Source of the DNA: Candidatus Nomurabacteria bacterium
GTDB taxonomy: Bacteria > Patescibacteriota > Minisyncoccia > Phycocordibacterales > UBA9973
Direction of reading: 5' to 3'
NCBI GenBank assembly: GCA_027347985.1
Contig: DAIEQH010000002.1
Location: forward strand, 1 to 40,387
Length of the DNA: 40,387 nt
Part shown: positions 1-27,987 of the stretch, in pieces
Layout of the letters: each line of letters starts with the position of its first letter
Position numbering within the stretch: position 1 is the stretch's first letter
The notes under the pieces: generated by a model
The model's input: the letters and a program-made list of their open reading frames with translations, nothing else
Told to the model about the DNA's origin: nothing
The model's database searches: none
Program-made: the position numbers and the translations under genes

Positions 1-2580
1 TATTCTATAGAAGAACATACTTTAATGGCAATGAATCAGTTTGAAAAATATTATTCTGACAAAGAATTGCCTATTGGAATAGAGAGAAACTTCTTTCGAT
101 TTATGCTTTCTATACATGATATTGGTAAACCAGAAGCTATAAAAACGGGTGATATAAAAAAACAGCATGAATTTACTATTAAAGAAGCTCAAGTTGGTAA
201 ATTGTCGGGTTTATGGTCACACTATTCGAAAGATAATAAATTATTTAAATCTTTAGTTGGCCAAGATTATTTGGGTACATATATCAAAGGTGGAGACATT
301 GACAGTACTTTTGTTAAAATATTAGAAGCTTCTAGAAAAACTGATTTATCTCCGAGTGATTTTCTAAAAGCTTTAGAAATATATTATAAGGTGGATGCTG
401 GAAGTTATACAGAAGATGCAGGAGGGAAAAAATCTTTAGATAGGTTATTTAATTTTGATCAAGAAAAAAAAGAACTTTCTTTTTCAAAGGAAGTTGAAGA
501 TAAGTTTTCTTTATTAAAAAACAAAATTATGGAACACGAAAATCAAGAGAATAAGTTAAAAACTGATACTTTAGACAAAAAAGACCAAAAAGAATTAAGA
601 GATTTTAGTAAAAAATATGCTCTTTCTTTTCGTAAAGAAACAGCTCAAAAGATTAATAATTTAAGGTTTGCTTATGAAAACAAGCTAGTGGAAAAGCCTA
701 AAGAAATAGAAAAATACCAAGAAGATATCTCTGTTAAAAAAGACGAAAAAGAAAAGAAAGAACAAGAACTGTTGTTGATACAGAAAGATTTAGAAGAAAA
801 AGAAAGAGAATTGGAATCATTACAACAATCTATGAATGAGTGGAAAAATGAATTTTGGGTAAAAATAAGGAGTTTTTTGTCTAAAAAGAGTGTAGAAGAA
901 GAATTGAAACTTTATACAAGTAGTATAGAAACGATTAAAAATTATATAAGCAATAAGAAAGTAGAAGGACAAACACAGGAAGAAATTTTAAATAGATTAA
1001 ACAAGGAAATAGAAGAAAAATATAGGTTAATTGAAGAAACAGAGTCATTGTTAAGTTCTGAAGAAGAATTAGAAGAGATAAAGAATGCTTCTAGTAATTT
1101 TTATAGTAAAATTAAACAGGAAAAAATAAATCTAGATTTAGATAGTAAATTTAGAGACATAACAACAATTAGCTTAAAAAACGAAGCTTTATTTTGTCAC
1201 GCTCTACCTATTGAGAGAGAATATGATAATTCATTTTCCCAAAATAATGCTTTGGTAAATACAAGAAAAATAGAAGCTGAAGAAAAGATAAAAATGATAA
1301 TTGGAATAGAGCCGACAATCTCTGTTTCAAGTATTAACAATACAAGCCAAAAATTAGTGCGAAAATTTGGAGTTATTTTAAAAGGAGGAAAGATCTTGAG
1401 TGCTTATGCAGGAGATGCGGGTACATTAATAGAAGAAAATATCAATAATCGAAAATCAAAATATGATTCAGATTTAAAACATTCTAATTTACAAAGTGGC
1501 ATAGAAGAAAAGATAAATAAAGCATTACTTCATATTAATACTAGAACTGAAGACAATAATGGTTCTATTTCTAGTATGGATCAAGGTTGGAATGAGATTA
1601 TAGTTGAAAATCCTCAATTAGCTGGTATCTACTGTCAAGATGTTGAGATTTTAAAGAAAAATATTGCAGATATTTACGGGATGAGTAAAAATTTATCTTT
1701 ACCAGTGTATTTAATTGAAGGTACAAAAATTTCTGAGATGATTTTTCCTGAAAATAGTGAACTTAGTTATCAAAAAATTATTAAGGAAGATTTAATAAAA
1801 TTTAAACAAGTTTCATTAAAGGAGGTTTTAGAAAATAAAGTAATGTTTAGCAAGAACCAAAAAGCTGATATAGCCGAAAGTGTAATAGATAGAGAAACTT
1901 TTGAAGTTAAAAAAGAAAACATATATAAATTTAATAGTTACAATATTGGTAGAGCACAATTTAATTTTATGAAAAGAATAGATGCTGGAGAAATGGTAGA
2001 AGTTCGTAGAATTGATGATGTACATGAGAATAATGAAAATTTCTTTGCGATAGTTGGAGGTGGAATAAAGATTGAAAAACTAGAATATGACGAATGGCAA
2101 TGGGAACATCATGGTAAGGAAAGTTGGGGAGAATATGGATATCATGGTTATGCTCGAAAATCTAAAGAGGATGGGAAAGTAAGGCTAGGAGGCATGGCAA
2201 GTGGGATTCCAGGATGGGAATTTTATGGTGAAATTGATAAAGAAAATGGGATTAGCTCATATCTTGATTTAGCTGAATCTAATTTAAATGAAAGAATGAA
2301 TCAAATGCGAGATTTAAAGTTAAAAAGAGAGAATACTAAAAATCTTGATTTAGTAAAAAAATCATATATTTTCAATCTTTATGGTTTTGCGGAAGAATGT
2401 AAAAAAATTGGTGATTTACTGAATTATGAAAGAGCTATAAAAATTATAGAAAAATTTGGTGATTTAAAATCTTGTCAAAATTTTGTAGAAAAAAGACAAG
2501 GAAAAGATGGGAAATTTCAAACACTAGAAGAAGATATACCATTAGAAATAAGAGAAAAAATTAAGGATTTAAAAAAGTAA
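1..2580 (+). CDS. HD-domain / long coiled-coil protein of unknown function, 5' end cut by the window edge
   Basis: The frame is open from position 1 (codons 1-24 read YSIEEHTL with no stop), so the ATG at 25 is probably internal. An H...HD signature (EEHTL ... SIHDIGKP) is typical of HD phosphohydrolases. Residues ~170-370 are K/E-rich and coiled-coil-like. I recognise no motif in the C-terminal ~480 aa. Confidence 0.6.
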   Translation, partial: YSIEEHTLMAMNQFEKYYSDKELPIGIERNFFRFMLSIHDIGKPEAIKTGDIKKQHEFTIKEAQVGKLSGLWSHYSKDNKLFKSLVGQDYLGTYIKGGDIDSTFVKILEASRKTDLSPSDFLKALEIYYKVDAGSYTEDAGGKKSLDRLFNFDQEKKELSFSKEVEDKFSLLKNKIMEHENQENKLKTDTLDKKDQKELRDFSKKYALSFRKETAQKINNLRFAYENKLVEKPKEIEKYQEDISVKKDEKEKKEQELLLIQKDLEEKERELESLQQSMNEWKNEFWVKIRSFLSKKSVEEELKLYTSSIETIKNYISNKKVEGQTQEEILNRLNKEIEEKYRLIEETESLLSSEEELEEIKNASSNFYSKIKQEKINLDLDSKFRDITTISLKNEALFCHALPIEREYDNSFSQNNALVNTRKIEAEEKIKMIIGIEPTISVSSINNTSQKLVRKFGVILKGGKILSAYAGDAGTLIEENINNRKSKYDSDLKHSNLQSGIEEKINKALLHINTRTEDNNGSISSMDQGWNEIIVENPQLAGIYCQDVEILKKNIADIYGMSKNLSLPVYLIEGTKISEMIFPENSELSYQKIIKEDLIKFKQVSLKEVLENKVMFSKNQKADIAESVIDRETFEVKKENIYKFNSYNIGRAQFNFMKRIDAGEMVEVRRIDDVHENNENFFAIVGGGIKIEKLEYDEWQWEHHGKESWGEYGYHGYARKSKEDGKVRLGGMASGIPGWEFYGEIDKENGISSYLDLAESNLNERMNQMRDLKLKRENTKNLDLVKKSYIFNLYGFAEECKKIGDLLNYERAIKIIEKFGDLKSCQNFVEKRQGKDGKFQTLEEDIPLEIREKIKDLKK

Positions 2581-2625
2581 TTTTTTTATACTAAAAAATA
2601 GAAAATGGTTTAATTAAATCTTTAA

Positions 2626-3771
2626 TTACTCTTTACTTTCAATAATAAAACTTGCTCGCTTGTATAATTCATCAAAAGTAATTATGTCTATTCCATGTAT
2701 TGATTTTCTAAACCGTTGAAATGTTTCTCTTTTGTTTCTTTCTTCACCAAATTCAGACAATGAACCAATTACAATAATTCCTTTTGGCTGAACTGTATAA
2801 ACATTTTTTTTCTCAAGTCTATCTCTATTTTCTGGTTGTTCTGAACCTTGTTTTTCCCAAGTGTAAATATTTGCTTCGATTTGGGATAGGGCATCCGTAA
2901 GATTTTTAGATAGACTCCACGCACCATTTCTAATTTGTGTAACACCTTGAAGCAAGGGGGTTTTTGGAGTTTTAATTTCCACAAGAATAGTAAAGTTGAT
3001 ATCTCCAAGAGTGGAAGTCAAATAGTCACCCTTTTGTCCACCTTTTCCATCTACTTTTTGTCCTCCATAATGTGCTTGTGTTTGTTCCTGTTTTAAAATT
3101 TGATAATTTAAACCATAACCAAAAATCCATTTATTCTTTTCAAAAAAATCTTGCCACCAATTTTCTTCTGTAGTATGTTCCGTGAGTGCTTTTTTAAATT
3201 CTGCTAATTTCTCTCTTCGTTTAATAACAATATTTAAATCATCCTGTGAAAGACTCACTCCGGGTATTGAGGAAAGCTGTTTTATAATACTGACAATACT
3301 AGCTACGTCTCTACCACGCAATGCAGAAACAATTTCTCCTTCTCCTTGTGATACAAGAGAAAATTTTCCCCTAGGTATTTCAATTTCCTGTAATGTTTGC
3401 AAAAACGAAATTAATTGCCAAAAATTATCATGGCAATCATTAAGACTAATACTAGCTTTTGTAAAATTTGCATTTTCTTCTTCCGTACTAATTATTTCTA
3501 AAATTTTACCGCTCTTGTCTCTTGTTGAAAATGCTAAACGAGGACTAAATTTGTCGCCTTTCTTGATTAGGGTTACTTGGCATATATAATCCACTCTTTC
3601 TTTTTCTTGAAGAATAAATTTTTTAATAATGCTATTATTTTTTCTATTAGAAAAGTAATAGAAACTCTGAATCGCAGTTGGATTAATTTGGAGATCAGAA
3701 AAATTATCTTCTCCAATTATAAAATCTTTATTTCTGTTAAATCCATTCATAAAAATTTTAGAGAGTTTCAT
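2626..3771 (-). CDS. sduA: Shedu-type defence nuclease (DUF4263 / SduA-like PD-(D/E)xK domain)
   Basis: 381-aa ORF with an ATG start. The C-terminal half has the DUF4263 layout: WWQDFFEKNKWIFGYGL, GDYL (Asp), ILVEIKTP (ExK), ALSQIEANIY and IITFDELY. The N-terminal domain is variable. The gene starts 4 nt after the XRE gene stop, so the two look like an operon. Confidence 0.7.
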   Translation of the reverse strand: MKLSKIFMNGFNRNKDFIIGEDNFSDLQINPTAIQSFYYFSNRKNNSIIKKFILQEKERVDYICQVTLIKKGDKFSPRLAFSTRDKSGKILEIISTEEENANFTKASISLNDCHDNFWQLISFLQTLQEIEIPRGKFSLVSQGEGEIVSALRGRDVASIVSIIKQLSSIPGVSLSQDDLNIVIKRREKLAEFKKALTEHTTEENWWQDFFEKNKWIFGYGLNYQILKQEQTQAHYGGQKVDGKGGQKGDYLTSTLGDINFTILVEIKTPKTPLLQGVTQIRNGAWSLSKNLTDALSQIEANIYTWEKQGSEQPENRDRLEKKNVYTVQPKGIIVIGSLSEFGEERNKRETFQRFRKSIHGIDIITFDELYKRASFIIESKE

Positions 3772-3775
3772 ATTT

Positions 3776-3979
3776 TTATTTTAAAAGCTCATCTATAGAA
3801 ACATTAAGTGCTTTTGCTAATTTGGTAATCGTTGAAAGTGTCGGGTTTTTATTACCACTTTCAATATTGCTTATATACGCTCTATCAACATCTAATTTTC
3901 GGCAAATATCGCCTTGCGACATTTGCTTTTCAAGACGAATTCTTTTCATATTTTGACCTAATTTTTTTGAGTTATTCAC
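3776..3979 (-). CDS. XRE-family helix-turn-helix transcriptional regulator
   Basis: 67 aa. LGQNMKRIRLEKQMSQGDICRKLDVDRAYISNIESGNKNPTLSTITKLAKALNVSIDELL is a canonical Cro/C1 HTH. The annotated start is GTG (3977-3979). An internal ATG 10 codons in is an alternative start. Confidence 0.85.
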   Translation of the reverse strand: MNNSKKLGQNMKRIRLEKQMSQGDICRKLDVDRAYISNIESGNKNPTLSTITKLAKALNVSIDELLK

Positions 3980-3985
3980 AGTTTT

Positions 3986-4035
3986 AGTATAATACCGATT
4001 GTTTTTTCTAACAATATTGTTTTATAATACAATAT
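3986..4035 (-). promoter_or_regulatory. Candidate sigma70-type promoter and operator for the XRE-Shedu operon
   Basis: On the minus strand: TTGTTA (4009-4014), 17-bp spacer, TATACT (3986-3991), 6 nt, then GTG. A perfect 12-bp palindrome AACAATATTGTT (4010-4021) overlaps the -35. The half-site ACAATAT recurs at 4029-4035. Confidence 0.45.
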
Positions 4036-4273
4036 AGAAGCCCGCATTCCTCCCCAAACCCCTCCTGCGGGCAGAATTTGAAATCTCGCCAAAAGATGAC
4101 AGCCGAAAAAAGCGAAATCCTTTTTCCCAAAATTTATGCTTTCGCTTTTTGAGTCCATTTTTAAATTCCACATTAGGAGAGCGTAGTAGATAGTTTAAAA
4201 TTATTAGAAAAGTCGAGCGTGCACTTAACCTTGATTTTGTTCAAAATAAGTTCGTGCAAAGGTAAGTAAGACA

Positions 4274-4390
4274 CCACAAAAAGAAACTTCGTCGGTGGTG
4301 AGCGAAAAATTCGAGCACGCCAAAGGCGTGCGAGGTTGTGAAAAAATTAAATCCGCCCTGCGGGCATAAATGAATTCGGTGGGTGGGCAA
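4274..4390. repeat. Left copy of a 117-bp inverted repeat (IR-L) flanking the serine recombinase gene
   Basis: Base-by-base comparison shows 4274-4390 equals the reverse complement of 5857-5973 except one position (4335 g, paired with 5912 t). Weaker similarity continues inward to ~4420 after a 9-nt indel. The repeat contains the internal hairpin GCACGCC-AAA-GGCGTGC. Confidence 0.9.
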
Positions 4391-4444
4391 GAAGCAAGAA
4401 ATGAGATTAATAATGGATTTTTTTAATATCTAAAAACAAATAAA

Positions 4445-6025
4445 ATGTTAAAACCAAAATATTTTCTTTACGCACGAAAAAGCACCGAGGATGACGACAA
4501 ACAAGTTATGTCTATCGAAGCTCAACTTTTTGAGCTTCGAGAATTCGCACGTAAAGAAAATCTTGAAATTCTTGAAGAATTTCAAGAGTCGAAAAGTGCA
4601 AAGAAACCGGGTCGTGAAAAATTTAATGAAATGATGTCCCGCATTGAGCAAATGGAAGGAGTAGGAATTTTAGCATGGCATCCCGACAGACTTGCTCGTA
4701 ATAGTGTTGATGGTGGACGTATCATTTACGCAGTGGACACGACAAAAATAGTTTCTTTACGCTTTCCGACATTTTGGTTTGAACCGACCCCGCAAGGACT
4801 ATTTATGTTACAAGTGGCGTTCGGGCAATCCAAGTATTATTCTGACAACCTTAAACAAAATGTTGAGCGAGGAATTCGCCAAAAAGTGAGACGTGGTGAA
4901 TGGCTTACCAAAGGACCCCGTGGCTACATCAATAATCCGAAAACAAAAAATATTGAACCTGATCCGGTGTTGGCAAGAATTATTGTAAAAGCATTTGAAG
5001 AATACGCCACGGGCAAACACACTTTTAGAACTCTCTCACACTTTTTGGCAGAATATGGTGTCATTACGAAAAGCGGAACGCCACTTGGCAAAGCTTCCAT
5101 TTACGAATTACTTACCAACAAGGCATATATCGGCTTGGTAAAACATCATGATGAATGGTTTCAAGGAAACTTTGTGCCAATTATTTCCATAAATTTATTT
5201 GAAGCTGTGCAGAAAAGATTGAAAGAAAAATCAAGACCTCGCAAAACAAAAGCCGGACACAATTTTCCTTTTACCGGATTATTTCGTTGTGGTGAATGTG
5301 GAAGTATGATAACCGCTCAATGGGCGACAGGAAATAGCGGTGAGCGTTATCGTTATTATCGTTGCACAAAGAAAAAGGAAAATTGTTCACAAAGATATTT
5401 ACGAGAAGACAAAATGATTTTTCAACTAAAGGAACAGCTTCAAAAGATTACGCTTCCCGACGAATGGATTAAGTTTATGGAAGAAAAAACTGACGAATGG
5501 GAAAAAGAAGTGAAAATTTCGTCAGGAAGCTATGTCGGGCAGATTAAAGACAATGAGCGAGAGACGCAGAAAAAACTAGATAATTTAATCACAATATATT
5601 TAGACGGTGATATTCCAAAAGAAAATTATCTAGCAAAGAAAAATAAATTATTAAAACAAAAAGTGTCCCTCGCTCAAAAAATGGACTCTGCCCGAGTGGA
5701 GAGAAATAATTGGGTCGAACCTTTGCGGAAATGGATTTTAGATATAAAAAAAGCCACGCAATTGATTTCAAGCGACAATTTTTTTGAAATTCGTGATTAT
5801 TTCAAAAAAATTGGAACGAACCTAAAATTGCGTGACAAATCCATATCAATCTCATTTTGCCCACCCACCGAATTCATTTATGCCCGCAGGGCGGATTTAA
5901 TTTTTTCACAATCTCGCACGCCTTTGGCGTGCTCGAATTTTTCGCTCACCACCGACGAAGTTTCTTTTTGTGGACCCTACAGGACTCGAACCTGCCACCT
6001 CCTCATTGCAAATGAGGCGCTCTAG
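4445..6025 (+). CDS. Large serine recombinase (resolvase/invertase catalytic domain, recombinase domain, zinc ribbon, coiled coil)
   Basis: The N-terminus YARKSTEDDDKQVMSIEAQ carries the catalytic Ser context, followed by HPDRLARN. A zinc ribbon (CGECG...YYRCTKKKENC) is followed by a long coiled coil. There is no stop codon until 6025, so the last ~55 codons cross IR-R and run antisense into tRNA-Ala. The functional C-terminus is uncertain. Confidence 0.85.
   Translation: MLKPKYFLYARKSTEDDDKQVMSIEAQLFELREFARKENLEILEEFQESKSAKKPGREKFNEMMSRIEQMEGVGILAWHPDRLARNSVDGGRIIYAVDTTKIVSLRFPTFWFEPTPQGLFMLQVAFGQSKYYSDNLKQNVERGIRQKVRRGEWLTKGPRGYINNPKTKNIEPDPVLARIIVKAFEEYATGKHTFRTLSHFLAEYGVITKSGTPLGKASIYELLTNKAYIGLVKHHDEWFQGNFVPIISINLFEAVQKRLKEKSRPRKTKAGHNFPFTGLFRCGECGSMITAQWATGNSGERYRYYRCTKKKENCSQRYLREDKMIFQLKEQLQKITLPDEWIKFMEEKTDEWEKEVKISSGSYVGQIKDNERETQKKLDNLITIYLDGDIPKENYLAKKNKLLKQKVSLAQKMDSARVERNNWVEPLRKWILDIKKATQLISSDNFFEIRDYFKKIGTNLKLRDKSISISFCPPTEFIYARRADLIFSQSRTPLACSNFSLTTDEVSFCGPYRTRTCHLLIANEAL
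5857..5973. repeat. Right copy of the 117-bp inverted repeat (IR-R)
   Basis: This is the reverse complement of 4274-4390 (116/117 identical). It lies inside the 3' end of the recombinase ORF. Its outer 3 nt (5971-5973, tgg) are also the last 3 nt of the tRNA-Ala gene. Confidence 0.9.
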
Positions 6026-6044
6026 CCAGATGAGCTAAGGGCCC
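5971..6044 (-). tRNA. tRNA-Ala (anticodon UGC)
   Basis: The minus-strand 74-nt sequence folds as a cloverleaf: GGGCCCU UA GCUC AUCUGGCUA GAGC G CCUCA UUUGCAA UGAGG AGGUG GCAGG UUCGAGU CCUGU AGGGUCC A. It has the G3:U70 alanine identity pair, discriminator A73 and the T-loop UUCGAGU. No CCA is encoded (the next bases are CAA). Confidence 0.9.
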
Positions 6045-6579: not shown

Positions 6580-7434
6580 TTAATAGTATCTCGCAATATT
6601 CTTTTTGTGCTCTTCGTAAGTCACTGCGCAGTGTATATTTCTATTTTTATCATGCAAATAAAACATGCAATTTGTTTTTTGCGGATTAAAAGCTGCGGCT
6701 ATGGCATCGAGCCCCGGATTAGCAATCGCTCCCGGAGGAAGACCCTCGTGTAAATATGTATTGTAAGAGGATTCTATTTTTTTATCTTCAGGTGTCACAT
6801 GAGTCCACCAACCCTCTTCTTCATTCCCCTTCGCATATTGAAGAGTAGCATCAATTTGTAATTTCATACCACTAAAAATACGATTCCAGATAATTCCAGA
6901 AATTAATCTCATGTCGTTTTTGCCAGCTGCTTCACGCTGAATGATAGATGCGATTTTGACAGCGGTATCTTCATTTATTATTTGTGCAGTTTTGGGTTTT
7001 TTAATTTTTTCCGTTGCTTTATTAAATTCATCAAACATCGCATTACTCATACCTTTCGGATCTTCATCTTTAGAAACCAAATAAGTTTTTGGAAAATAAT
7101 AACCTTCTCCGTTTACGTCACTTTTTGTATCGTTCAAAGCAAGATGAGCATTAATAAAATCATTTTTTTGTACAGGTCCCCAATCTAATTTATCCGCTAT
7201 CACTTCTGCTATTTGTTCTTTACGTAATCCTTCTTGCACTCGAATAATACGCATAGAAGGATTCGCTAGGTTTTCGTAAAAAGAAAGATCTGCAAGCAAA
7301 GAAGGATCAAAACCATAGTAATAAACTACGCCAAATAAAGTACCAACTAATAAAAAAAGGACTCCGACAAGATATTTTAATTTGATTCCCCGTGAAGTTT
7401 TCTTATTGTTATTCTTTTTTATAACTTTTTTCAT
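6580..7434 (-). CDS. mltG: Endolytic murein transglycosylase MltG (YceG-like)
   Basis: An N-terminal TM anchor is followed by YceG family motifs: QIDATLQYA, YNTYLHEGLPPGAIANPGLDAIAAAFNP. Confidence 0.85.
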   Translation of the reverse strand: MKKVIKKNNNKKTSRGIKLKYLVGVLFLLVGTLFGVVYYYGFDPSLLADLSFYENLANPSMRIIRVQEGLRKEQIAEVIADKLDWGPVQKNDFINAHLALNDTKSDVNGEGYYFPKTYLVSKDEDPKGMSNAMFDEFNKATEKIKKPKTAQIINEDTAVKIASIIQREAAGKNDMRLISGIIWNRIFSGMKLQIDATLQYAKGNEEEGWWTHVTPEDKKIESSYNTYLHEGLPPGAIANPGLDAIAAAFNPQKTNCMFYLHDKNRNIHCAVTYEEHKKNIARYY

Positions 7435-7619: not shown

Positions 7620-7628
7620 CATATATTT

Positions 7629-7930
7629 GGTCTTGTATCTATAAGCCGAATTCTGTATCCCAACTTGCGTTAGAATGATAGTTATTTGTCTAGGCCCTAA
7701 ATTACTCTAGAGCTCAAGCGATTCTCCCTGGCTTACGCCTAGGGCACGATCTTGCACACACGTAGGTATTTTGCCGTTTCACCCGAACTAAATCGGTTCG
7801 TCACTGTTCTCAACCCTATCCTTGCGGACGACGGGAATTACCCGCTACGCTTTCCCTAGCCTAAACTAGGGCTATGTGTTCGGACTTTCCTAACCCTATA
7901 AAATAGGGCTCAACTATCCAATACAGGACC
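7629..7930 (-). ncRNA. rnpB: RNase P RNA, bacterial type A, compact (~302 nt)
   Basis: No ORF is present and the region is GC-richer than its surroundings. The minus strand carries the universal P4 halves UUAGGAAAGUCCGAAC and ACAGAAUUCGGCUUAU, plus GGGUGAAACGGC, AGGCGUAAGCC and a P3 hairpin (AGCCCUAUUUUAUAGGGUU). P1 pairs GGUCCUGUAU with AUACAAGACC (9 of 10 positions). Confidence 0.85.
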
Positions 7931-7964: not shown

Positions 7965-8000
7965 ATCCACACACTTATTTTATAAAATAAGTGTGTGGAT
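7965..8000 (-). terminator. Long perfect hairpin terminator after nrdJ
   Basis: ATCCACACACTTATTTTA / TAAAATAAGTGTGTGGAT. On the minus strand it is followed by a T-rich tract. Confidence 0.7.
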
Positions 8001-12375: not shown

Positions 12376-12427
12376 TTAAATTTTATTTAGTCAAAAACTA
12401 GTATACCAAGTACTCAAAATTTGTAAA

Positions 12428-12455
12428 CCCCCACACCTATGCATAGGTGTGGGGG
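12428..12455 (-). terminator. Perfect 28-bp palindrome terminator after tgt
   Basis: CCCCCACACCTATGCATAGGTGTGGGGG is followed on the minus strand by TTTACAAATTTT. Confidence 0.65.
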
Positions 12456-12464
12456 TAAAGAGTT

Positions 12465-27959: not shown

Positions 27960-27987
27960 CCCCGCTTGGACCTAGGTCCAAGCGGGG
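27960..27987 (-). terminator. Perfect 28-bp palindrome terminator after the DUF378 gene
   Basis: CCCCGCTTGGACCTAGGTCCAAGCGGGG is followed on the minus strand by GTTTGCTTTTT. Confidence 0.65.

Follow-up and report, generated by a model that had tools for sequence, protein, structure and literature searches.

A putative tRNA-Ala island of a Candidatus Nomurabacteria bacterium with a large serine recombinase and an internal, inverted copy of its attachment region

Investigation of a 40,387-nt stretch of DNA from a Candidatus Nomurabacteria bacterium (contig DAIEQH010000002.1 of assembly GCA_027347985.1; the whole stretch is referred to as the window) revealed a gene encoding a large serine recombinase (LSR, here called the integrase) that lies between two long inverted arms, the right one of which meets the 3' end of a tRNA-Ala(tgc) gene. 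The best explanation, with a probability of roughly 0.78, is that positions 1-5973 are the right-hand part of an island integrated at the 3' end of this tRNA gene by means of the LSR. It is directly supported by the architecture and its conservation among relatives, the logic of the junctions, the unoccupied site of a relative, the variable cargo and the concerted evolution of the arms.

The proposed layout of the island is x'/a' - cargo - a/b - integrase - b'/tRNA, with a slash at each junction. The integrase gene would be placed between inverted b arms (115-131 bp) and the cargo between inverted a arms (220-250 bp). The left arm and the a-module directly outside it would together form a second, intact and inverted attP-like attachment junction (a/CC/b) and not an end of the element, the right arm would be the element-side half of attR that also encodes the C-terminal tail of the integrase, and attL would be located beyond the cargo (Shedu and XRE genes), outside the window.

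Inverted arms of the integrase gene

A repeat search of the window showed that positions 4274-4390 and 5857-5973 are inverted arms of 117 nt, 1466 nt apart and complementary at 116 of 117 positions (99%), with a sole mismatch between G at 4335 and 5912, where the complementary strand has A. A search for a 52-nt core of the arm gave exactly two occurrences in the 40 kb of the window, where chance predicts 0, and no second inverted repeat of comparable length was found elsewhere in it. Pairwise alignment of the arms revealed a 9-nt insertion, AGAAGCAAG, at 4391-4399 of the left copy and, inward of the insertion, about 14 nt of weaker similarity (AAATGAGATT.ATA, about 4400-4413 against 5843-5856). 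The preliminary description of this DNA had reported the repeat with its one difference at 4335/5912, a degraded similarity on the inner sides, the LSR as the only gene between the repeats and a length far beyond the 2-bp identity that simple insertion by a serine integrase leaves; repeat search, alignment and Pfam domains confirm the first three of these, and the last is upheld.

The repeat includes the final 4 nt of tRNA-Ala, CCAC. The tRNA gene is intact through position 72, and its discriminator A and trailer come from the element. On the tRNA strand, the outer 16 nt of the right arm read ACAAAAAGAAACTTCG and are similar to the flank of the unoccupied site described below; further inside the right arm is the hairpin GCACGCC-TTT-GGCGTGC (5916-5932).

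For comparison, 159 non-redundant related loci (L numbers below) were examined. The arms of 36 elements align gap-free across 119 columns and are conserved at the outer end (NN-ACA...GAAAC) and in an inner block (GCGAATTCGGTGGGTGGGCA); each arm has a GC-rich hairpin, the sequence and position of which differ between two classes of arms. Within a locus, the identity of the two arms averages 98.6%, and 27 of 48 pairs are identical, while between loci arm identity is 41-67%, though the interior of the integrase gene is 50-90% identical. The arms thus evolve faster than the gene and yet in concert, for which gene conversion or an equivalent copying is needed, in agreement with the homogenisation by recombination or gene conversion that the preliminary description had proposed.

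A structured RNA in the arm was considered and rejected. Folding of the arm with the tRNA (z = -0.90) and of the arm alone (z = -0.34) was no better than that of shuffled sequences, Rfam gave no match in 3950-4460 even at E <= 1, and RNAalifold found no consensus fold for the 36 arms, because the GC-rich hairpin occupies two different positions in the two arm classes. Outward-facing terminators in both arms were also rejected as a general feature, being flagged in the window and not in L010 or L043.

Large serine recombinase

The integrase gene is the sole substantial open reading frame (ORF) between the arms; it starts between them, runs across the entire right arm and has its stop codon within the antisense strand of tRNA-Ala, residues 472-510 (approximately) being encoded by the right arm and residues 510-526 by the antisense tRNA. 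The catalytic domain was detected with PF00239 (E=1.6e-22, residues 7-153), the translation containing both YARKST, the catalytic motif, and DRLAR, and the Recombinase and zinc-ribbon domains were detected with PF07508 (E=1.2e-12, residues 177-262) and PF13408 (E=1.8e-11, residues 275-330). A PHROG integrase profile matches across residues 3-462 (E=4e-75), while the PHROG 'DNA invertase' profile covers only residues 5-242, i.e., the N-terminal domain. In the PDB solely the N-terminal resolvase domain was recovered (3guv, E=3e-8), and NCBIfam gave weak matches to CcrB and XisF with scores far under every equivalog cut-off.

Over 48 loci, stops within the right arm number 1, 21 and 74 in frames 0, +1 and +2, respectively, the frame of the integrase being maintained across the arm. 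Known LSR profiles stop at residue 462, and the arm therefore encodes a family-specific C-terminal tail, the last residues of which are set by sequence beyond the core of the junction. Within the integrase ORF, a conserved 27-nt palindrome (4561-4587) may be an antisense terminator that could stop antisense transcripts arriving from the tRNA side; the homologous site was flagged as terminator-like in the window, in L010 and in L043. Excision by large serine recombinases relies on a recombination directionality factor; no candidate for such a factor was identified, and some elements are without any cargo (L019).

Junctions, core dinucleotide and the unoccupied site

Three types of junction are present in these loci, namely a/b (internal, upstream of the integrase), t/b (at the tRNA) and a/x (at the far end, inverted). 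The identity of a/b and t/b starts at a dinucleotide equal to tRNA positions 71-72, and the identity of a/b and a/x stops just past this core dinucleotide. In 87 of 90 loci the left junction has the same core as the right one (TC in 45, CC in 29, GC in 10 and GG in 3); the core co-varies with the target and differs between element lineages. At tRNA position 70 there is no match between the junctions, and the shared core is therefore two bases long, as expected of the crossover dinucleotide of a serine recombinase; a 2-nt crossover at tRNA positions 71-72 would fit this comparison.

The x sequences of at least 12 relatives open with a discriminator (and CCA in L144 and L156), followed by hairpins with T-runs. 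To judge by this composition, x is the displaced native trailer of the tRNA gene together with its terminator, as is found at the far end of tDNA islands (islands in tRNA or tmRNA genes). The junctions match what would be expected of a reaction of attP (a/b) with attB (t/x) giving attR (t/b) and attL (a/x), plus one extra intact and inverted a/b. The distance of a GTTCG motif from the core is 24 nt in a and 18 nt in the T-loop of the tRNA (80 of 81 cases); this 6-nt offset recalls the offset of the zinc-ribbon domain between attP and attB that has reportedly been described for LI integrase, and is taken as a lead only.

Regarding the unoccupied site, the YceG/MltG gene to the right of the tRNA in the window (6580-7434) has an 80% identical homologue on JAPLXV010000016.1 (L175), in the same context of YceG, a small ORF and an identical tRNA-Ala(tgc), with a convergent host gene after the tRNA and no integrase. 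The empty site reads ...GGGTCC/ACCAAAAGAGACTTCG (with its fuller flank, ...GGGTCC/ACCAAAAGAGACTTCGCTAAAT). Presence and absence of the element at tRNA-Ala is thus polymorphic at the level of the genus, L175 being from a different species; no empty site of the same species was found, the nearest YceG homologues being only 80% identical. The empty tRNA-Ala gene (L175 4706-4716) encodes CCA (TCC-ACCA), whereas the occupied gene of the window (5968-5973) reads TCC-ACAA. The element replaces ACCA with ACAA, and the occupied tRNA must therefore depend on CCA addition. The first 16 nt of the native flank (ACCAAAAGAGACTTCG, L175 4709-4724) agree with the outer end of the arm at 14 of 16 positions in the window and 16 of 16 in L001, which has the closest related element, a match that can be read as a putative recombinase half-site common to target and element.

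The a-module upstream of the left arm

The left flanks are conserved across loci with differing target genes. With an nhmmer profile, the a-module, which includes the motif GTTCGNGCAAAGG, was found to precede 100 of 107 complete left arms. Promoter-like sequences directed into the b arm are present at homologous places in L010 (TTGAAA-17-TACAAT, 10/12, ending 4 nt before the arm) and in L043 (TGGAAA-17-TATGAT). The a-module may accordingly combine the P-type half of an attP-like junction with a predicted, sigma-70-like promoter of the integrase gene, and the left arm is predicted to be the 5' untranslated region (UTR) of that gene, because of its position between the a-module promoter and the integrase start.

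A second, inverted a-module is present in at least 14 loci (L040, L044, L055, L056, L019, L085, L094, L100, L117, L130, L139, L144, L156 and L160), 0.2-7 kb further left and past variable cargo; in L040, L044, L055 and L056 the inverted copies beyond the cargo are 220-253 nt long and 98-100% identical. For the island of the window, the far end is predicted to consist of an inverted copy of 4040-4273 ending ...TGTCTTAC-rc/GG (rc, reverse complement), joined to a trailer that opens with A(CCA) and to a terminator.

In the proposed mechanism, the internal a/b junction would provide the integrase promoter (in a, transcription beginning close to the core), the 5' UTR (in b) and possibly an operator, and integration via the downstream copy would leave the integrase expressed and possibly autoregulated. 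Excision by attL x attR recombination would give a circle with two inverted attP copies that keep integrase and cargo apart, and the attP-type junction b'/a' of this predicted circle would read ...CGAAGTTTCTTTTTGTGG/TGTCTTACTTACCTTTGCACGAAC. The inverted orientation would allow two long copies to coexist, homologous recombination between them leading to inversion and not to deletion, and gene conversion or homologous recombination would keep the copies identical.

Distribution in Patescibacteria

Integrase homologues number in the hundreds, with identities of 60-95%, and at least 560 tblastn-confirmed matches were obtained in each of two collection scans. All relatives that carry an organism name belong to Patescibacteria, including Paceibacteria, Nomurabacteria, Zambryskibacteria, Yonathbacteria, Kaiserbacteria and others. 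No relatives were found among the viral contigs of IMG/VR, and a phage origin was rejected on this ground.

Inverted arms of 115-152 nt, mostly 93-100% identical, enclose the integrase in nearly every fetched locus with enough flanking sequence. The right arm is present in 129 of the 159 loci and meets the convergent 3' end of a tRNA or tmRNA gene in 109 of these 129, with an overlap of 3-4 nt. The targets are of 26 gene kinds (for Glu, Ala, Arg, Ile, Ser, Val, Gly, Leu, Lys, Pro and Met, and tmRNA, the last confirmed), and the element is therefore aimed at the end of tDNA genes in general. The discriminator at the start of the arm is mostly A, but G in the elements at tRNA-Ser genes. In L040 an entire island of 4.2 kb is located between tRNA-Glu and tRNA-Val. 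Where a genome holds two elements, their integrases are diverged and their arms differ (L003 and L011). ARAGORN called tRNAs with the anticodon tta ('stop'), which may be suppressor tRNAs or miscalls, at L015 1832-1905 and L175 7674-7768; the former is an integration target.

Regarding orientation, the integrase is directed toward the tRNA in about 100 loci from independent assemblies, the opposite direction being seen in a single truncated contig (L068), and the four assemblies of the window's own element (the window and three other samples) all have one orientation. In the public scaffold L081 (DMQX01000045.1), sequences are joined over NN exactly at an arm (3004-3006), with the integrase block opposite to its neighbours; repeats of this kind mislead scaffolders.

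Cargo, cargo exchange and tandem elements

The part of the window to the left of the a-module differs in composition from the remainder, with a GC content of 27-30% over positions 1-4000 against 34-39% elsewhere in the window. It contains genes encoding a Shedu anti-phage nuclease and an XRE/Cro-type regulator (Table 1), next to an 851-aa protein without a match in Pfam, PADLOC, NCBIfam or PHROG, possibly the product of a defence or accessory gene of the island that is not yet characterised. The region upstream of the XRE gene, TTATTCACAGTTTTAGTATAA...TTCTAACAATATTGTTTTATAATACAAT, is conserved in L063, L013, L024, L100 and L047. Several relatives have a similar XRE gene and upstream palindrome beside the a-module, and L056 also has an XRE gene there; the palindrome of the window may be operator-like. 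In other relatives the cargo consists of type I restriction-modification genes, OLD/AAA_15 ATPases or surface proteins, or there is none, as in the smallest elements of about 2 kb (L019).

Cargo also differs between elements with the same integrase. An identical 514-aa integrase (P0045; L163 and L164) is found at the same tmRNA-SmpB site with cargo that differs by sample, a block with an OLD/AAA_15 ATPase in some samples and an XRE gene alone in another. L173 (ENA ERZ27237538 k141_1506180) has the integrase protein, the right arm and the tRNA flank of the window, whereas 6 differences are found in its left arm and its a-module has diverged; recombination must therefore have exchanged the left module, and the arms are not always identical. 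In L056 (1-1524 and 1475-1711), the complete chromosome CP060229.1, a second, divergent LSR runs into a far-end hybrid junction a/b2, and a similar hybrid junction, with a different a-type on its right, is present in L161 (4810-5033). Both loci indicate elements stacked in tandem at one tRNA, and hybrid sites can therefore serve as targets.

Features of the window

The coordinates of the element and its cargo are collected in Table 1. Outside the element, a bacterial RNase P RNA of class A (110.8 bits) is encoded on the minus strand at 7626-7929, 1.6 kb from tRNA-Ala. Perfect palindromes of 28-36 nt at 7965-8000, 12427-12456 and 27960-27987, dissimilar to the arms, are likely to be terminators.

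Table 1. Positions and assignments of features in the left part of the window
Feature	Position	Strand	Remarks
Cargo ORF, 851 aa	25-2580	+	Coiled-coil-rich; beside Shedu
Shedu anti-phage nuclease SduA	2626-3771	-	Pfam SduA_C, E=4e-32; PADLOC SduA, E=8.5e-142, full length
XRE/Cro-type helix-turn-helix regulator	3776-3979	-	Pfam HTH_3, E=3.3e-17; divergent from the integrase
Palindrome AACAATATTGTT	4010-4021		XRE upstream region; conserved
a-module	4040-4273	+	About 230 nt; conserved; directly outside the left arm
C-rich hairpin block	4040-4073		Part of a-module
Two GAGCGT motifs	4176-4186 and 4212-4222		Part of a-module
-35-like TTCAAA	4240-4245		Part of a-module
GTTCGTGCAAAGG	4250-4262		Part of a-module
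-10-like TAAGTA	4263-4268		Part of a-module
Core dinucleotide of the internal a/b junction	4274-4275	+	CC, same as tRNA positions 71-72
Left arm (b)	4274-4390	+	Inverted duplicate of the integrase 3' end and the element end
Integrase (LSR)	4445-6025	+	526 aa; Pfam Resolvase, Recombinase and Zn_ribbon_recom
Palindrome TCTTGAAATTCTTCAAGAATTTCAAGA, 27 nt	4561-4587	-	Conserved; inside the integrase ORF; T-run next to it on the antisense strand
Right arm (b')	5857-5973	-	Putative element-side (P'-type) half of attR
tRNA-Ala(tgc)	5970-6044	-	ARAGORN; Rfam tRNA, 62.9 bits; integration target, putative B-type half of attR
Core dinucleotide of attR	5972-5973	-	CC on the tRNA strand, tRNA positions 71-72; probable crossover site

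Alternative explanations

Several observations weigh against an integrated island of the proposed layout. No inverted a copy is present within 1-4273, the island running off the left edge of the window, and a far-end a copy was found in only about 40% of the loci that have 5-10 kb of upstream sequence; the far-end junction of L055 is without a conserved core. Further contigs that share genes with the window's island are short and do not reach its far end. The window's own promoter-like sequence, TTCAAA-17-TAAGTA, has a weak -10-like hexamer and failed the promoter scan. The 16/16 match of the native flank to the arm of L001 could instead be the scar of a former element. An excised circle or attP-only form was not seen among the contigs compared, and the contigs that resemble an integrase-b'-a' arrangement are short, gap-scaffolded (L053/L081) or tandem (L161); L053/L081, L161, L009 and L110 were rejected as proof of a circle or an inversion because of an NN join, a tandem element or truncation at the other arm. 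The attP of a canonical serine integrase is about 50 bp long, nothing known requires 115 + 230 bp, and the long duplication of about 350 bp is not accounted for by binding sites alone. It is conceivable, if rather improbable, that the inverted duplication of the attachment region is a working part of a new recombination logic, in which the internal a/b and the occupied tRNA/b, whose inner half still matches the native target, are an inverted attP/attB-like pair that regenerates itself at each exchange. Under that logic, and at equally long odds, the LSR might need no directionality factor for repeated rounds of recombination, in which it would flip its own gene, add tandem elements or swap cargo.

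The main rival, and the reading preferred in the preliminary description, is a self-contained invertible cassette of the Hin/Gin type, in which the integrase or homologous recombination would flip the 1.47-kb segment between the arms; in one version of it, an attP-like a/b and an occupied tRNA/b that is still attB-like would form a self-regenerating inverted pair that flips without a directionality factor. Long and near-identical inverted repeats enclosing a recombinase, and their concerted evolution, are compatible with such a cassette, and the cores at the two junctions are reverse complementary, as inversion requires. The outer 16 nt of the arm resemble the native flank, so that the occupied junction is attB-like in its inner part, and the tandem elements imply that hybrid sites are usable as targets. 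L068, with a tRNA 3' end against the arm upstream of the integrase, could be a flipped copy, yet it is one truncated contig against about 100 loci in which the orientation is essentially fixed, including the 3 further samples of the window's element. Many contigs break at or near the arms, but any repeat that exceeds the assembly k-mer in length is expected to cause breaks, and their clusters are at the a-module and not at the b arms. Moreover, a flip would turn the gene antisense to the promoter-like module, there is no neighbouring gene that would be switched, the protein fits the profiles of integrases and not of small invertases, and canonical large serine recombinases are not known to recombine attP with attR. 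A self-flipping cassette is thus considered unlikely.

The preliminary description had also suggested a mobile unit bounded by the inverted repeats and targeting the 3' end of a tRNA gene. Its targeting is borne out by 109 of 129 loci, while its boundary is not, the left arm being internal. Taken as an insertion sequence (IS)-like minimal transposon of 1.7 kb with 117-bp terminal inverted repeats, in which the serine recombinase would be a transposase hopping to tRNA 3' ends, this reading is very improbable. Such a unit would account for the compact form with terminal-looking repeats and a single recombinase gene, for its occurrence beside 26 kinds of tRNA and tmRNA genes, with two copies in some genomes, and for the many contigs of 1.7-2.5 kb that carry the gene alone. 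Conservation extends outside the left arm in 100 of 107 cases, whatever the target, and the conserved sequence there has its own inverted copy past the cargo; the left arm is therefore no boundary of the element, and no locus was found in which the cassette lies between a tRNA and unrelated host DNA lacking a. Paired copies in a genome are diverged paralogues with different arms (L003 and L011) and not the near-identical multiple copies expected of an IS, exactly two copies of the arm are present in the 40-kb window, and the short contigs are explained by assembly breaks at repeats. That the inverted duplication is a product of assembly or amplification, the condition under which the preliminary description would have been withdrawn, can practically be dismissed. 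Inverted-repeat chimeras do arise in amplified metagenomic DNA, and L081 is visibly mis-joined at an arm, but more than 130 assemblies, made independently in many projects and with many assemblers, have the same architecture, the complete chromosome CP060229.1 among them, the arms differ between loci and match within a locus, and the locus of the window was reproduced in 3 further samples.

Comparison with known systems

The integrase has the same three-domain organisation as the LSRs of phiC31, Bxb1, A118 (LI), SPbeta (SprA), the skin element (SpoIVCA), Anabaena (XisF) and SCCmec (CcrAB). As in prophages and islands of serine integrases, the integrase gene is located at one end of the island beside an att junction, and the identity of the junctions is confined to a short core that fits a 2-nt crossover. 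The present elements differ from these in inserting at the very 3' terminus of tRNA or tmRNA genes and not at a protein-coding or intergenic site, in having the core within the integrase ORF, in retaining an intact inverted attP-like copy of about 350 bp, with integrase and cargo both flanked by repeats, and in extending down to cargo-free forms of about 2 kb (L019). We know of no characterised serine integrase with an inverted duplication of the attachment region and a core inside the integrase ORF.

With Tn4451 and Tn5397 (TnpX and TndX), the elements have in common a small size, an LSR at one end as the sole mobility gene and a dinucleotide crossover. The tnpX promoter of Tn4451 arises at the joint of its circular form, which is analogous to the predicted promoter reading from a across the core into b. 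Those transposons have short, imperfect end repeats, loosely specific targets and no permanent internal copy of the joint, whereas here the promoter-core-b junction is intact when integrated and the target is the end of a tDNA. The invertases Hin, Gin, Cin and Pin likewise combine a serine recombinase gene with inverted repeats, and the inverted cores would in principle permit inversion here; in contrast to those enzymes, of about 190 aa with a C-terminal helix-turn-helix, 26-34-bp sites, both orientations and a switched gene or promoter, the present integrase has 526 aa, its arms are 115-131 bp long, its orientation is essentially fixed and nothing is switched. The predicted circle, with two unique segments split by inverted repeats of about 350 bp that contain the recombinase site, resembles the yeast 2-micron plasmid by analogy only, FLP being an unrelated tyrosine recombinase; replication genes are absent here, and the circle is no more than predicted.

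Regarding tDNA islands as catalogued by Islander and TIGER, shared features are an integrase that adjoins the tDNA, restoration of the gene 3' end by the element, a native trailer marking the far end, variable and often defence-related cargo, tandem arrays, and occupied and empty sites. Islands in tDNA are usually made by tyrosine integrases (PMC4383910). The present islands have a serine recombinase instead, their shared block consists of 2 nt and the discriminator and not of a tRNA fragment of 15-50 nt, and the internal inverted att copy is without a counterpart there. The tycheposons of Prochlorococcus are similar as small, cargo-bearing integrative elements at tRNA genes of streamlined genomes. 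In their description, a minority of tycheposons (27 of 937) have a large serine recombinase, most are of the tyrosine-integrase type and leave partial tRNA repeats, many have replication genes, and no inverted duplication of an attachment region is mentioned (bioRxiv 10.1101/2020.12.28.424599). A literature search returned no relevant account linking Patescibacteria or the candidate phyla radiation with serine recombinases, and only general statements on serine integrases and tDNA. The family and its internal inverted attachment copy are thus apparently undescribed, whereas the class of enzyme and the behaviour of tDNA islands are already known.

Significance

Patescibacteria have tiny genomes, their mobile elements are poorly known, and the repeats of the present family systematically break short-read assemblies at tRNA genes in such genomes. 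The group is also one with few genetic tools, and compact elements with predicted att sites that are legible from sequence are candidates for such tools, possibly also for integration at tRNA sites elsewhere. The duplication raises questions on autoregulation, directionality and the exchange of cargo; if the attachment duplication does work as a self-regenerating pair, exchange of cargo between the inverted a arms would be a natural form of recombinase-mediated cassette exchange. The family itself is a large and highly conserved group of serine integrases specialised for tDNA ends, a niche that textbooks assign to tyrosine integrases, and appears to be a main vehicle of defence cargo (Shedu, type I restriction-modification and OLD-type ATPases) in Patescibacteria.

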